A DNA stretch of 64,000 bases from a virus (IMGVR_UViG_3300048672_000152:29453-93452); one strand, 5' to 3'; positions 17,132 to 33,000 are shown, counted from the first letter of the stretch. The notes: generated from the sequence alone by a model not told the origin. Numbers and translations: made by a program.

Positions 17132-17160
17132 TTGACAAATATAATACATAGTGATAAACT
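17132..17160 (+). promoter_or_regulatory. sigma70 promoter upstream of terS
   Basis: TTGACA-17-TAAACT with extended TG. Confidence 0.7.
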
Positions 17161-17201: not shown

Positions 17202-17612
17202 ATGTCTGATGTAGAAACTACCTCTAGCGAAATCCGCGATGATAAAGGCAGATTTAAACGTGGAGTTAGCGGCAACGTTAAAGGTCGCCCTCGTAATACT
17301 AAAGGGAACAAACACAAACACGCAAAGCAAACATTAGAAACAATGTTAATGTCTACAGGGCCAGCAGCTTTAAAAGCTATCAAGAAAATGGCTGATGAAG
17401 AATTAGCAAAGGGTAATGTCAATCACGCATTCAAATGTTATGTGTTTATTGCTGATAAATATTATCAACTTGTTATGCACAACGACAAGGTTGAAATCCA
17501 AGCTATCAAAGACGAAGAACAGCGTAAGCTTAAAGCACAGCAACAACAGGATGAAGATTCTGAAGAAGATTCAACATTCCAGAATGTAATTGTTACATTC
17601 GGTAGTGCTTAA
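17202..17612 (+). CDS. terS: probable terminase small subunit
   Basis: RDDKGRFKRGVSGNVKGRP (DUF5681-type motif), position upstream of terL. Confidence 0.65.
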   Translation: MSDVETTSSEIRDDKGRFKRGVSGNVKGRPRNTKGNKHKHAKQTLETMLMSTGPAALKAIKKMADEELAKGNVNHAFKCYVFIADKYYQLVMHNDKVEIQAIKDEEQRKLKAQQQQDEDSEEDSTFQNVIVTFGSA

Positions 17613-17632
17613 CATCAACGAATAACTATAAC

Positions 17633-17733
17633 TCTATGCGTATACTCTTGTATACCTCTCCATCATCCCCCTAGAGGCAGCCTCTCCTCTGCACCTCTCC
17701 ACTCTAGGGAGATTTCTTCCCCCCCCGCATAGA
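17633..17733. ncRNA. structured intergenic RNA with three CCTCTCC motifs
   Basis: nested stems TCTATGCG/CGCATAGA, ATCCCCCTAGAG/CTCTAGGGAGAT, GCAG/CTGC. Confidence 0.55.
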
Positions 17734-17755
17734 AGAATTACACAAGGAATTATAA

Positions 17756-18181
17756 ATGAATTTAGTAAACTTAACATACGGTGGAAGCCGTAGTTATTTC
17801 AAAGGTATTATCGAACAAGGTAGTAATTTGGCAACAGTAGAAGCTGGTTGGTCATCTTATTGTCGATTACTTGTCACTACACGCTTAAATATGAAGCTAA
17901 TGATTGGTGGTGTTGAAGAAGATGTTATTGATGGTAGAACACTACTTGATTTAACATTCAATGCCGCTAAAGCTGGTAAATTCACCCTAGATGAAGCTGA
18001 AGCAATTGCTAGTCAATTAGATAAGATTAGTTTACGTTACACATCTGTACGCACTCCATTCTTTGCAATTGCTTATGAAAAAGATTTGACATCTAAAGAA
18101 GAAGCTAGTAATATTGATTCTGTTGCTGAGGATGTTGTTACAGAAGCTCCGAAGCAACGTGGTCGTAAAGCTGCTAAGTAA
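17756..18181 (+). CDS. hypothetical protein
   Basis: AAGGA SD; basic C-terminal tail. Confidence 0.75.
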   Translation: MNLVNLTYGGSRSYFKGIIEQGSNLATVEAGWSSYCRLLVTTRLNMKLMIGGVEEDVIDGRTLLDLTFNAAKAGKFTLDEAEAIASQLDKISLRYTSVRTPFFAIAYEKDLTSKEEASNIDSVAEDVVTEAPKQRGRKAAK

Positions 18182-18692
18182 AGAATTTCCCCTTCACACA
18201 TAGGATGTGGTTGAGGAATAGTCCTCGAATAAGTTCCCTAGGACTTTAAATACATGATGGAATCCGTGCAAGCGCCATAACACATGGACAACTATAAGAG
18301 TGAATAATGTGTTGGTCTGGAAGCGGCAGACTCCCTAATTTAGCATTCGCTAGACTCCCCTAGGAGTGAATATCGGTGTTAACAAAACAACTAGCCGTCC
18401 CTTAGCCCACTGAATATTAGGTTCAGGTATCCCTAAGGTTGTTGTCCCCACCTGTGATAAGGTGAATGCTGGTGCATTTAATGGGTTTAATTCAGGTTTT
18501 TAATTTTAAGAAAGCTCAACCTCTGATGTTACCATCATGTTGAGTTTCGTTTTACCGCTGATTGGCGTCTGCGGAGACTTAGGTCTGAAGAAATTAATAG
18601 TCGCAAAGATTCCATTAACAGTTATCTTTGCTTAAGAGTAAGCGATTAACTCTGCGCCAATAGGTGAGGGTAACTGATTAATAGGATTTTAA
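18182..18692 (+). ncRNA. ~500-nt non-coding, multi-domain structured region
   Basis: no ORF; long-range stems TAGCATTCGC/GTGAATGCTG, GAAAGCTCAAC/GTTGAGTTTC, ATTGGCG/CGCCAAT and many hairpins. Confidence 0.5.
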
Positions 18693-19409
18693 ATGAACAA
18701 TATTGAGTGGCGAGTTATCCCAGATTTCCCTATGTATAAAATCTCTGAATATGGAGATATTTATAGCTATTACAAATCTGGAAAAATGCTGAAACCTAAA
18801 TTAGATAAAGATGGGTATCTGGCTGTAAATCTTACTGAGAATAAAGTTAGACACGACCTACGAGTACATCGTTTAGTCGCTTCAGCCTTTCTAGATAACC
18901 AAAATAATCTACCAATTATAAATCATAAAGATTTGAACGTAAGTAACAACCATTACTCTAATTTAGAGTGGTGTACTTACACTCACAATACTGTACATTA
19001 CTATGCTAACGGTATTAATAAAAGAACACTATCTTCTTTAACTAAAGAAGAAATGTTGTCTATTGTATCAGACTACAAAGATGGTGCTTCACATAAAGAT
19101 CTTAAAGAAAAATATAACCTAGAGTGTAGGGCTGACGCAATCAGTGAAATTGTAACTGGACGTAGATTTTCTGAAATTACCGGAATCGTAAAATCAGATA
19201 AATTTGAACAACGCACAACAGCCAAACACGATGATGATTTAATCTTAGAGCTTTTAATTAAAGCTCATTGCAATAATATACCTCAGAAAACTTTATGTGA
19301 AGAATATAAGTTATCTGCTGCACAAATTAGTAGGATAGTTAATGGTAGCAGACGGAGAGAAGTATTCGAGAAGTTTATGAAGGAGATATATGAAAAAACC
19401 AAAAGCTAA
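18693..19409 (+). CDS. free-standing NUMOD4-HNH homing endonuclease (I-HmuI-like)
   Basis: EWRVIPDFPMYKISEYG, VHRLVA.AF, INHKD....NNHYSNLEW, C-terminal HTH-like repeats. Confidence 0.92.
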   Translation: MNNIEWRVIPDFPMYKISEYGDIYSYYKSGKMLKPKLDKDGYLAVNLTENKVRHDLRVHRLVASAFLDNQNNLPIINHKDLNVSNNHYSNLEWCTYTHNTVHYYANGINKRTLSSLTKEEMLSIVSDYKDGASHKDLKEKYNLECRADAISEIVTGRRFSEITGIVKSDKFEQRTTAKHDDDLILELLIKAHCNNIPQKTLCEEYKLSAAQISRIVNGSRRREVFEKFMKEIYEKTKS

Positions 19410-27774: not shown

Positions 27775-28845
27775 ATGGCTGACGTTCCTATCGAAAGTCG
27801 TATTGATGTTGTTGTGTCATTAGGCACACAACCTCTAACCACAGCATCATTTGACAGCGCAGTATTTGCTGCTGAATTGACAGATGCTGCATTTGCACAA
27901 GATTATAAAATCTATACCTCAGTGAAAGAAATGGTAACTGATGGTTTCCTCACTACTTCAGCAGCATATAAGTATGCTAGTTTAGTATTCGGCGGTAACT
28001 TCCGAGCTAATAAACTGTATGTAGTTAAATTTGGTAGCACTGGTGTTGCTGTAACTAAAACTCCAGTACAAGCTCTTACTGATTTATTCAATGTAGACGA
28101 CACCGCTTACTATATTGGTTGTAGTTCACACTCTGATGTGAATGTAACTGCATTAGCTGCATTTGCTGAATCATTAGATAAGATGTATGTTCATGCTACA
28201 CAACAAGCTGGTGTATTAGTTCCAGCAACTACTACTGACATCGGTAGTGTGTTACAGGATGCTTCATACAACCATGCTTTCACTATCTACAATGCTGCGG
28301 CTGATTCTAGCTATGCTGAAGGTGGTGTTGTGGGTGCAATGGCTGCTATCGCTGCTGGCACATCTACGTTAGAAGATAAGACAATGGTGGGTGTTACTGT
28401 TGACAGTTTAAATGCTACTCAACGTAGTTCATGTGAAGCTAAAAACGTAGCTTACTATATGCCTATTGCTGGTGTCAATTCAGTGTTCAATTCTAAAGTA
28501 GCTTCTGGTCAATTCTTCGATACTATCGTATTCGCAGATTGGTTGAAAGCTCGCGTATCTGAAGAACTATATGGTTTACTGAAACGTGAATCTGATTTAG
28601 GTCGTAAGGTATCATACGATGAGGCAGGTTTCTCTAAGATCCGTCAAGCTTGTCGTCGTGTAATTGAAGTTGGTCGTGCTAATGGAGCTATCTCTTTAGA
28701 TAGTGAAGCTATTGTACGTACACCAGAACGTAGTGAGATTTTAGAAGCAGATCGTATGAATCGTGTTCTTCCAAATCTTGTTGTTGAAGTTCCATATTCT
28801 AGTGCTGTACATAAAGTTATTGTACGTGCTTACGTTACAGTATAA
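27775..28845 (+). CDS. tail sheath protein (DUF3383-type)
   Basis: GQFFD....DWL, KVSYDEAG, DR..R.L, AVH.V. Confidence 0.9.
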   Translation: MADVPIESRIDVVVSLGTQPLTTASFDSAVFAAELTDAAFAQDYKIYTSVKEMVTDGFLTTSAAYKYASLVFGGNFRANKLYVVKFGSTGVAVTKTPVQALTDLFNVDDTAYYIGCSSHSDVNVTALAAFAESLDKMYVHATQQAGVLVPATTTDIGSVLQDASYNHAFTIYNAAADSSYAEGGVVGAMAAIAAGTSTLEDKTMVGVTVDSLNATQRSSCEAKNVAYYMPIAGVNSVFNSKVASGQFFDTIVFADWLKARVSEELYGLLKRESDLGRKVSYDEAGFSKIRQACRRVIEVGRANGAISLDSEAIVRTPERSEILEADRMNRVLPNLVVEVPYSSAVHKVIVRAYVTV

Positions 28846-30076: not shown

Positions 30077-33000
30077 ATGGCAGATAATGTAGTAGGCTCA
30101 GTTGTTGGTCGTGTTAGGTTTAGTATTGATAAAAGGTCGTGGGATAATCTCGATTTATTTCAAAAGAAACTTACCTCAATTAAACGACAAATGACTAACA
30201 TGGACAAGAGTATTAAAGTTAATGCTGTTGTCCAACAAATAAATAAAGTAGCTAATACGGTCGTGAACGCTGAAAAGAAAGTAGCTAAAGCGAAAGAAGA
30301 AGCGGCTAAGAAGAATCATAAACTAATGACTTTCGGTAGTGTTGGTGGTGATCCTAAAGGTTATACGAAGTTCTGGCAAGAGGAACTAAAGACTCGTGAC
30401 CAGCTAACTAAAGCCAGAGAAAAGCAAGATGCTATTTACGCTAAACGTCAACAAGCTGCTCTAGCTAACAATAACAAACGTGCTGGTATGTCTGATAGAC
30501 TAGCTTGGTTATTCCCTGCATCATCTGTAAGTAATCCAGCCAATCGCGGTTTGTTAGCTCAAATGCTTCGTGATGAAGCCACTGCGAGTGTTAAGCTCCA
30601 GAGAGAACAAGACAAAGCATACGAAGCTCGTCGTAAAGATGTGATGGGTAGGCGCAATGCTTCTTTAAAATCTCGTGCTGCTCGTGACAGAGCTAAAGAA
30701 AAACAAACAGCCAAAGCCAATAGAAATAGAACAGCATTTGAAGCTGGCGTTGAAAACTTCATGCTCATTAAAGAATCTCAGCTTAATCAATATGCTGATA
30801 GGGTGAGAATGAGTCAGCAACAACGTGCTGAGATGATGGGTCGTCTAGGTAAAGCAAAGGAAGATGCTTTAAAAGGTATTGACCCCACTCAGGCTAGAGC
30901 TATTGAATCTTTTAGAGCGCAAGTAAATAAAACTAAGAATGAAATGGTTAACACTGACCGTATTACTAGGTCTAATGCTGTTTCATTTAGGTCACTACGT
31001 AATGAAATTGTGCAACTAACTGCTGCTTATACGGCGTTTAGTGTTGTGCAGAATGTTGCTCAGACTGGTATGGATCTCGAAGGAATTCGTGCTGCTGCTA
31101 AAGTATTTACAGGTAGCGACGCAGGGACTACTGCTCACATGGAATACCTTGTAGAAATGTCTGATAGACTTGGCGTTAACTTCATGACAGCAGCTAAAGA
31201 GTTTAATAAATTCTCTATTGCTGTAGGTAGTAAAGCAGATCAAGGTACACAAAGACATATCTTTGAAGGTTTGTCAGAGTATGCAACAGTATTACAAGTA
31301 GACCAACAACAATATGAACGAGCTATTCGTTCAGTAGTTCAAATGTTCTCAAAGGAACAAGTATACGCTTAAATTCAGGTGCTTCATATAGTAATATATG
31401 TCGAAGAATCTCTCTAATTCGGTGGAACTCTTACCATGTAATGATGGAGACAATGCCGAGCGAAGCTCAATGTATAATATTGAGAACGTGTGACGGTCAG
31501 AACGATAGTTCGTACCCTATAAGCTATTGATAGGGGAAACGGGAGATACCGTATTATTAAATTAACGGTAAAGAGATGACCTAATCTGTATAGAAATATA
31601 CAGCAGCATGTAAAGATGCGAATAACTTAGTAGCGTAAGTTATTGAATTATATGGAAGAATTACGTGGGCAGTGGACTGACTAGCTGCCATAACATAGTA
31701 ATATGTTATAAGAAAACTTATTGAATTGCTGGAAACTCCTAAAAATCATACACTACAAAGTAATCGGTGACGGTAAGCTTGACAGTTTGAAAAGTTATGA
31801 TATGATCTTTCTTTTAATAAGAGGAAGTGAAATGGACAATCAGCAGGTAAGTTCCTGTGAAGAAGTTTGGAAATTATATGAAGATGAACCTCGTTATGAA
31901 GTATCTACTTTTGGTAGAGTTCGGCACGTTAAGGATTTATCTATCAAATATAGTAAGCCAGATAAAATAGGGTATGTATGCATCCAATGTAAAACAAAAG
32001 GTAAAATCAAAAACCTTAAAGTACACAGGATGGTGGCACAGACGTTCTTAGAAAACCCAAACTCTTTGAGAGAAGTAAATCACAAAGACGGGGTTAAAAC
32101 TAACAATAACGTAGATAATCTTGAGTGGTGTACGCGCAGGGATAACATACTGCATGGTCACGATATAGGTCTTTACGATTTAAAAGGTTCTAAGAATGGT
32201 AGGTCTGTATTAACAGAAGATTTAGTACATAAACTTTGTGCTTGGTACGAGAGTTGTCCAAACAACACTCCAAAACTCGCAGTTAAAATGTTTAGTATTA
32301 GTATACAGCAAGCATCTAAAATCAGGTGCGGTATTGCATGGAAACATATATCTTCTCAGTACAACATACTTCCCTTAGTAAACAGGAAAAACTCCAGAGA
32401 CTAGGCGTAAGCCGTACACCTAAGCAGGTGGAAGTGGTAAGCTCCTCTAACGAGGATGAAGATATAGTCCGACCTCATACGAAAGTATGAGCAGCTTGAA
32501 TAAAGCGGGGATGATGTAGCGAATCATCTTGAACATTTTGTAGCCGAAGCCCTCCCCGGATCTGTATCAGCAATGATGCGAGCAGCAGGGTATGATAACG
32601 AAAAAGATTTCTTTAAAGCTGTAGAAGCTGGTAAGATTATGGCATCAGAAGTTATGCCAAAGTTTGCCGATGAATTGAAGAAAGTAGCAAGAACAAATGG
32701 TGCGTTAGAAGCAACTACTAAAAAGACTCGTGCAGAAATGCAACGGTTCTTTAACCAACTAACATACGCCAAAGATAATATATTCCAAGGTGGAATGAAT
32801 GAAGGTTTATCTTATATGTTCGGCTCTTTTGCTGACTTACTTAAAGAGATGGAACCAGTTGCGAAAGCTTTAGGTGCTATGTTCAGAGGTGCGGTTGTAA
32901 CACTTACAGGTGCTATTAAAGTAGCACTTGTCCCGTTCAGAGGTTTAGTAGCGCTGTTTGATTCATTAGGTGATAACTTAGAACGATTAGGTATTCTTGA

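Follow-up and report, generated by a model that had tools for sequence, protein, structure and literature searches.

A candidate phage RNA family with invariant pyrimidine loops complementary to Shine-Dalgarno sequences of the phage genome

In the genome of an uncultured phage (IMGVR_UViG_3300048672_000152), a short spacer upstream of the packaging genes appears to encode a structured RNA of about 100 nt. The window we analyzed spans 64,000 nt, bases 29453-93452 of a 93,452-bp IMG/VR virus record that is rated complete and has 37% G+C. The spacer is 143 nt long (17613-17755 of the window, + strand) and lies between open reading frames (ORFs) for proteins of 136 and 141 amino acids (aa); the element occupies 17633-17733. 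As judged from compensatory changes in related phages, covariation strongly supports the element as a new RNA family, absent from Rfam 15 and from the papers we found. Its invariant unpaired motifs are complementary to a Shine-Dalgarno (SD) sequence frequent in the same genome. At somewhat less than an even chance, we favor the element being an anti-SD regulatory RNA, possibly derived from a 3' untranslated region (UTR) and also a partial terminator, that would damp translation of the non-structural genes.

The + strand spacer folds with an energy of -31.2 kcal/mol (z = -3.8), a value equaled by none of 200 shuffles. It is a C-rich, G-poor island with a GC skew of about -0.44. The predicted fold is a three-way junction of a closing stem (P1), a hairpin (H1), and a long arm (P2-P3) with a U-rich tract on its 3' side. 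The 5' strand of P1 (17633-17639) pairs with its 3' strand (17727-17733), and in H1 (17640-17655, GTATAC-TCTT-GTATAC) positions 17640-17645 pair with 17650-17655. The 12-nt 5' arm of P2 (17665-17676) pairs with the 3' arm (17702-17713), with one C.A mismatch at 17668/17710. On top of P2 sits the P3 hairpin (17677-17692), in which GCAG and CUGC (17677-17680/17689-17692) hold an 8-nt loop, CCUCUCCU (17681-17688), and it is followed by a 9-nt 3' bulge, ACCUCUCCA (17693-17701). The tract UUUCUU and a subsequent run of C (17713-17726) make P2-P3 terminator-like. A first-pass annotation, made from the sequence alone, had described a C-rich island with nested stems that leaves three copies of CCTCTCC, at 17655, 17681, and 17694, largely unpaired. 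The computed fold agrees. The first copy is in the linker between H1 and P2 (17655-17661), the second in the P3 loop, and the third in the bulge, and their probabilities of being unpaired are 0.88, 1.00, and 0.99, respectively. All three are on the + strand within 46 nt. The whole window contains seven copies, again all on the + strand, against 2.66 expected, and one of 100 shuffles reached seven.

We searched for homologous spacers with the flanking proteins and a core pattern. Homologs were found in IMG/VR contigs (L002, L003, L004, L018, L034) and in metagenome contigs (L027, L028, L029, which is partial, and L030). They provide eight distinct full-length sequences in three sub-lineages of uncultured phages, termed here clade A, the L034 type, and clade B. 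The flanking proteins of these relatives are 57-87% identical to those of the window phage. Folded singly, every homolog forms H1, P2, and P3 as in the window, and the loop and bulge are likewise shared. In a MAFFT alignment whose structure was set from the window (A4), 96.0% of the cells pair, and nine of the 12 pairs of P2, one of four in P3, and one of six in H1 are changed on both sides. A second, model-fitted alignment (A5) leans toward the structure, which A4 does not; there 97.5% of the cells pair and 12 pairs are changed on both sides. Within P2, 99% of the cells pair. None of 500 shuffles of A4 reached the observed covariation score or paired fraction, and sliding the 3' partners by 1-3 columns lowered pairing to 24-53%. 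The closing pair of H1 switches from C-G to G-C among the homologs, with G.U variants, and in P3 an A-U pair switches to U-A. The first-pass annotation had taken the element for a real structured RNA and proposed a check of covariation and conservation across related phages. The stems covary, with compensatory changes in all three core helices, and the loops are invariant in the eight distinct sequences. By this measure the stems are maintained by compensatory change.

Searches with cmscan gave no Rfam match at the locus at the gathering threshold for the window, or at E <= 10 for 17400-18000. With a covariance model of the element (R1), each genome yielded a single copy, and the window no further one. 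Near and distant DNA searches of a cultured-phage collection returned no match. About 120 stretches in IMG/VR fit relaxed forms of the core patterns; outside the known contigs, R1 accepted none of them. A scan of genome contigs found nothing. Further scans with two other alignments (A3, A7) added one new lineage only, L034. Two small reading frames that overlap the element were considered and rejected: a 12-codon + strand frame that begins at 17636 does not exist in L003, where ATT replaces ATG, and a 47-codon - strand ORF (17634-17777) is broken in all relatives by a 2-nt length difference.

While nine of the 12 P2 pairs vary, GCACCUCUCC, which comprises the 3' half of P3 and the bulge, is identical in every homolog; the invariant 9-nt bulge reads ACCUCUCC. 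The apical loop is YUCUCCUY in all homologs except for one variant, UUUUCCUC, in L030. The linker copy of the motif is kept in clade A only. In every homolog the apical loop and bulge are unpaired with a probability of 0.99-1.00, and neither has a purine able to pair inside the element. As they are invariant, always unpaired, and without an internal partner, they must meet a partner in trans, be it RNA or protein.

This pattern bears on whether the element is just a passive part of the mRNA, a 3' stabilizer or processing hairpin with loops kept for recognition by a nuclease or chaperone only. An intercistronic position and a stable arm suit such a role. So does the conserved A/U-rich single strand 5' of the fold, AACGAATAACTATAAC (17617-17632, + strand), which forms invariant columns in the alignment and may be a processing site, possibly of the RNase E type. 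The motif of this flank is neither repeated nor enriched elsewhere in the window-phage genome or in Barba19A, a cultured Rheinheimera phage described below. Stabilizers do not normally keep 10 invariant unpaired nucleotides while nine of 12 stem pairs turn over, and three lineages form the three-way junction from unrelated sequences. We consider a passive element improbable.

The stem changes are also informative about a possible site in the DNA, with the CCTCTCC repeats or inverted repeats bound by the terminase (a pac site) or another protein. The element does lie just upstream of a gene in the small-terminase (terS) position and of the large-terminase gene (terL), with the 7-mer in two or three direct copies. 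The compensatory changes include many G.U pairs, which would be G.T mismatches in DNA, and this argues for a constraint at the RNA level. At 26 and 13 bp apart, the repeats are out of helical phase, and in clade B and Barba19A the fold is retained while the number of repeats is not. We rate a DNA-level site as very improbable. One relative, G001, has direct terminal repeats.

The same G.U pairs indicate the strand of the RNA. On the + strand there are 13 G.U cells (pair 31-81 five times, pair 41-71 five times, and three in H1), and the sole C.A cell of the alignment is C17668/A17710 of the window, where the relatives have U-A. On the - strand these counts would be reversed. The neighboring genes are also all on the + strand, and we place the RNA on that strand. 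The first-pass annotation had seen the C.A mismatch correctly and, as an alternative, had offered a - strand RNA whose GGAGAGG loops would act as a decoy for CsrA/RsmA or the ribosome. The single C.A of the window would indeed be G.U on that strand, and a promoter-like site (10/12, 17834-17807), the only such - strand site, points leftward. This idea is not supported by the alignment, in which 13 G.U cells turn into C.A on the - strand and one cell changes the other way, and relatives repair the window mismatch to U-A. The - strand spacer folds with z = -2.3, compared to -3.8 for the + strand. The promoter-like site is within a coding region whose sequence is different in clade B, and by eye the site is not conserved there. 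GGAGAGG is present on the - strand only, and the locus has no CsrB/RsmY/RsmZ-type match in Rfam. We find a - strand decoy scarcely credible.

What the loops might pair with is suggested by the gene starts of the phage. The apical loop and the bulge are both exact complements of AGGAGAG, itself the perfect complement of CUCUCCU. We carried out a simple gene-start census over the whole genome, with the starts of the + strand structural block from 17202 onward classed as late. The most enriched 5-mers upstream of gene starts are AGGAG, GGAGA, and GAGAG. AGGAGAG is present in 18 of 119 non-late gene starts versus none of 41 late gene starts (Fisher p = 0.007). The genes bearing it mostly encode small proteins of unknown function, plus a ClpP-like protease. 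Two classes of ribosome-binding site (RBS) can be told apart. Non-structural genes have AGGAGA(G/A), often as ..AGGAGAGAATAAATG, and the structural block (17202-48684, + strand) has AAGGA/UAAGG. The many UAAGG sites would match a 16S rRNA with ..CCUUA at its end, and hence a proteobacterial host; judging from the related phages the hosts are likely aquatic gammaproteobacteria. The first-pass annotation had proposed that the CCUCUCC-type motifs mirror a frequent AGGAGAG SD. The invariance, exposure, and exact complementarity of the motifs fit this proposal, and 18 predicted gene starts carry AGGAGAG, none of them downstream of the element. The example it gave, CUCUCCUCUG against 1199-1208, is also real, as CTCTCCTCTG (17682-17691) has 10 nt of complementarity to this RBS region on the - strand.

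A similar bias is seen in the relatives. Of the AGGAGAG-N3-9-ATG sites in the complete 99.6-kb genome of G001, 14 are on the opposite strand to the element and three on its own. In the fragmentary contigs G002 and G003, which include clade B, the split is 4:1 and 3:1. Every same-strand AGGAGAG site in the relatives is upstream of the element, and a reversed-pattern control gave zero. The element thus has two features of small RNAs (sRNAs) with C-rich anti-SD loops: a conserved unpaired C/U motif held out by variable stems, and complementary sites in a set of RBSs (18 starts here and 17 in G001).

Two leader sequences were noticed alongside the census. An identical 16-nt leader, aacagAGGAGAGaaatt, precedes the ATG of two small genes (97 and 80 aa) at genome positions 16397 (+) and 30645 (-), the latter being window position 1193. 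These may be duplicated genes or may share a common translation-initiation cassette. In clade B (L018, reverse strand), a small ORF about 12 nt past the stop codon of the 141-aa homolog is preceded by the leader AGGAGAGGTTATG, whose first 9 nt perfectly complement the clade B bulge, ACCUCUCCU, located about 470 nt upstream on the same strand. With so common a motif this match may be due to chance.

Like the window phage, its distant relative Rheinheimera phage Barba19A has a spacer at this place in its genome. The gene order is the same: gp100, a homolog of the 136-aa protein, is followed by a 172-nt spacer, a small gene, about 600 nt without ORFs, terL, and the portal gene. The Barba19A spacer folds with z = -2.6 into the same topology, with an A-rich/U-rich closing stem, a first hairpin, a linker with UCUCC, and a terminator-like hairpin. 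This hairpin has a 10-nt loop, UCCCUCCUUU, and is followed by UUUAUUUUUUGUUGU; its strong U tract reads UUUAUUUUUU. The match of R1 to the spacer is weak (12.4 bits, E = 0.13), and for this reason we speak of an analogue, which may be a distant homolog. Another Barba species has a 99% identical spacer, and the Barba phages therefore provide no covariation evidence.

Barba19A also differs from the window phage in its gene starts. The ratio of GGAGAG to GGAGG starts is 4:17 in Barba19A versus 19:8 in the window phage (p = 5e-4). It is suggestive that the loop and the preferred SD differ in the same direction between the two phages. A contrast of duplex energies between the window loop and the Barba loop was not significant (p = 0.32). 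The element and the starts could form a private SD code, in which AGGAGAG(G) sites of non-structural genes would be titrated by accumulating CCUCUCC RNA and ribosomes switched from early to late messages, with the CCCUCC loop and GGAGG SD of Barba having moved together. We think this more specific proposal possible, though on the doubtful side.

The anti-SD reading as a whole makes use of the transcription context. A sigma70-like promoter, TTGACA-17-TAAACT with an upstream TG (17132-17160, + strand), would drive the 136-aa gene and, by read-on, the element. In clade B a similar TTGACA promoter is seen in the sequence before the homologous gene. The RNA would be made as the 3' end of the 136-aa gene transcript from the promoter at 17132. 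Some transcripts would end at the U-rich tract after P2, or the RNA would be cut from the mRNA at the A/U-rich flank, and the remaining transcripts would read on into the packaging genes. In the released or embedded RNA, the pyrimidine loops would serve as anti-SD seeds and pair with the AGGAGAG(G) RBSs of non-structural genes. Translation of these early- or middle-type genes would be lowered, and the late structural genes, with AAGGA/UAAGG, would be spared. The outcome would be an RNA counterpart of T4 RegB that operates on the C-rich-loop principle of the alpha-r14/cuckoo sRNAs and RNAIII.

Several observations weigh against this reading. The loops form duplexes with gene starts that are no better in energy than those of the ordinary ribosomal anti-SD. 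Non-late starts bind the canonical anti-SD better too (p = 0.0013 versus 0.0009 for the loops), and early genes may simply have stronger SDs. Because a loop of only C and U with CUCC complements the SD core, the match is partly expected from composition. A genome-wide duplex scan identified no single extended target apart from the antisense of the element itself. There is no sigma70-type promoter directly upstream of the element, and in the genome its conserved 5' flank is not a repeated promoter motif. The seeds are inside the terminator-like arm, whereas typical proteobacterial 3' UTR-derived Hfq sRNAs have them in a 5' single strand. The shift of loop and SD is one contrast between two lineages, and Alteromonas phage PT11-V22 has a relative of the 141-aa gene but no spacer before it. 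In addition, the near-consensus sigma70-type promoter of the element's unit is of a kind found genome-wide, including the late region. Promoters close to the TTGACA-N16-18-TAnnnT consensus, several of them with an extended -10 TG, are on both strands (16274, 16811, 17132, 18086, and many more). Inside the structural block they are found at 27877, 31779, 34300, 37097, 42471, 43418, and 47718. Their distribution suggests that the host sigma70 polymerase is used throughout. It also means that our terms early and late are inferred from gene content and strand, not from promoters. The late timing that the first-pass annotation gave the RNA would likewise not follow from its promoter.

The main rival to the anti-SD reading is that the element is a cis-acting regulated terminator, or attenuator, placed where the upstream unit gives way to the packaging and late genes. 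P2 and the U tract would stop transcription, the loop and bulge would dock a protein that sets read-through or stability, and the match to the SD would be coincidental. Candidate proteins are the product of a neighboring gene, through a basic N- or C-terminal peptide, or host S1, NusA, or another protein of the KH or cold-shock type. The stem and the U-rich tail are kept in all lineages including Barba19A, and the tract is UUUUUCUU in L034 and UUUUCUUUUUGUUGUU in clade B, both stronger than in the window. No promoter was predicted between the element and the 141-aa gene; this gene therefore depends on read-through, and termination, if any, must be partial. Both flanking proteins have conserved Arg/Lys-rich disordered segments. 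The U tract always has a pairing partner. In clade B and the window this is P1, which is 7 bp of mixed sequence in the window and L027 and an unrelated 10-11-bp A-rich/U-rich closing helix in clade B. In most of clade A the tract is instead folded in a 3' hairpin (UUCUUCU/AGAAGAA). In the window, UUCUUC (17714-17719) can alternatively pair with GAAGAA (17732-17737), and a weak pairing of the tract with the SD of the downstream gene, also possible, hints at switching in cis.

As in an intrinsic terminator, a G+C-rich stem (P2, 12 pairs) is directly followed by a U-rich tract, though in the window the tract is weak (UUCUU, then C). The element lacks the short simple loop of about 3-8 nt, since P2 encloses P3, an 8-10-nt loop, and the 9-nt bulge, 25-27 nt in total; in the window a branched insert of 25 nt stands where a terminator would have its loop. 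We found no conserved alternative anti-terminator pairing, and the fold of the 141-aa protein gives no clue to RNA binding. An attenuator also leaves unexplained why the loops are the complement of the extended SD of the phage and why loop and SD differ jointly in Barba19A. On balance we think an attenuator unlikely, if the most serious competitor of an anti-SD RNA.

The partner of the loops might instead be a factor that binds or cuts the 16S rRNA 3' tail, such as a host-defense toxin RNase or a ribosome-maturation factor, which the loops (CACCUCUCC here and CCCUCCUUU in Barba19A) would soak up as a decoy. The 3' end of 16S rRNA is CACCUCCUU, which the loops resemble. The extra U of the window motif (CCUCUCC, not CCUCC) makes it a poorer mimic than a decoy needs, and the partner is hypothetical. 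A precedent exists in pseudo-ToxI of phage phiTE, reportedly a phage RNA mimic of a host RNA that defeats abortive infection (PMC3475682). We judge a 16S decoy quite improbable.

If the anti-SD reading is correct, the element is of a known kind, a regulatory RNA with C/U-rich anti-SD loops. Distinctive would be the CCUCUCC variant matched to AGGAGAG starts and the placement of the motifs within the terminator-like arm of a three-way junction. RNAIII of S. aureus is a 514-nt quorum-sensing effector of a Gram-positive host. Its C-rich loops 7, 13, and 14, the last being the 3' terminal hairpin, bind to strong SDs left unpaired in several mRNAs and thereby block the 30S subunit (PMC2837412). RNAIII and the RsaE-type UCCC sRNAs are like the element in having conserved C-rich loops aimed at SDs. 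The RNAIII motif is UCCC, and there is no sequence or Rfam relation between the two. In the alpha-r14 sRNAs an identical anti-SD motif is found in unpaired regions while the stems vary, and pairing with the RBSs of many mRNAs has been proposed (PMC10746234). The alpha-r14/cuckoo sRNAs (NfeR1, CcsR1-4) thus resemble the element, with several unpaired regions that bear one ultraconserved pyrimidine anti-SD motif and with variable stems. In contrast, their motif is CCUCCUCCC in three separate hairpin loops, compared to CCUCUCC in one loop and one bulge of a terminator-like arm, and they are chromosomal alphaproteobacterial genes with their own promoter. The locus has no covariance-model match to alpha-r14, and instead of CCUCCUCCC in each of three hairpins the element has the P3 loop and bulge sequences and, in clade A only, the linker copy. 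As neither model nor motif matches, the element is not an alpha-r14 member. Intrinsic terminators and proteobacterial 3' UTR-derived sRNAs share the G+C-rich stem and U-rich tract at a gene end, and an sRNA could be released from the mRNA 3' end. They differ in that the top of the element's hairpin is an invariant branched insert, the seeds are inside the hairpin rather than 5' of it, and the window U tract is weak. The T4 RegB endoribonuclease inactivates early mRNAs by cutting GGAG SDs (PMC3014915). RegB is a protein nuclease helped by S1, whereas here the agent would be an RNA acting by pairing.

All genes around the element are on the + strand. Downstream of the 141-aa ORF are an ORF-free stretch of about 500 nt, an HNH gene (18693-19409), and the large terminase gene, whose product is about 40% identical to terminases of Pseudoalteromonas, Vibrio, and rV5-type myophages. 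The structural gene block also includes an Rfam match to a group I intron (RF00028, 57.1 bits, E = 7.6e-12) at 31360-31603 (+). The 136-aa gene upstream of the element (17202-17612, +) encodes a protein with a basic N-terminus and a long helix, modeled with low confidence (predicted local distance difference test, pLDDT, 67). Homologs with 33-34% identity are encoded in 115 Rheinheimera 'Barba' phage records. The first-pass annotation had labeled this gene terS. That label is not supported, as the only Pfam hit is DUF5681 at 25.0 bits, below the cut-off of 27.5, and the 141-aa gene holds the classical terS position in a related phage. Neither flanking protein matched PHROGs.

The 141-aa gene (17756-18181, +) starts with a weak SD (AAGGAA) and ATG (17744-17758). 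Its product, of an unnamed family of 28 clusters with distant homologs at 33-56% identity, has an alpha/beta domain, modeled confidently over residues 1-111 (pLDDT >90), and a disordered basic tail ending in a conserved KRGRK. A Foldseek search of the PDB found nothing at E <= 0.001, and in a wide VIA-align search the best Z of 4.2, to TetR-like helices, was not meaningful. The sole structural relative is ORF157 of PT11-V22 (MN877442.1 92183-92752), which sits directly 5' of the PT11-V22 terminase. The 141-aa gene is accordingly the better candidate, and the likely occupant, for the terS position, and its product may be an undescribed type of small terminase. We rejected the possibility that the 141-aa ORF is the first exon of terL, since TerL of phage H101 aligns with the 488-aa ORF from about residue 38; the 141-aa ORF is thus a separate gene.

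The long ORF-free stretch 5' of terL (window 18188-18674) has a conserved feature of its own. A 31-nt block (18404-18434) is identical at 29 of 31 positions to Barba19A (L158 4590-4620), where it is also in the ORF-free stretch, though protein identity between the two phages is no more than about 33%. Both differences fall in a hairpin with the loop UAUUAGG and compensate each other (CTGAA/TTCAG to CTCAA/TTGAG). A second, partial copy of the block is in the spacer hairpin of Barba19A (L158 3910-3926). It is probable that this block, too, represents a conserved RNA.

What is known of post-transcriptional timing in lytic phages comes mostly from proteins, such as RegB and RegA of T4. A conserved phage RNA that exposes the complement of its own early RBS would offer a simple way of switching between early and late translation by RNA, and if the private SD code is true, it would be an RNA-only equivalent of T4 RegB. 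Whatever its function, the element represents what appears to be a new family of structured RNA, and the cultured analogue in Barba19A, which grows on Rheinheimera strain BAL341, permits bench tests.

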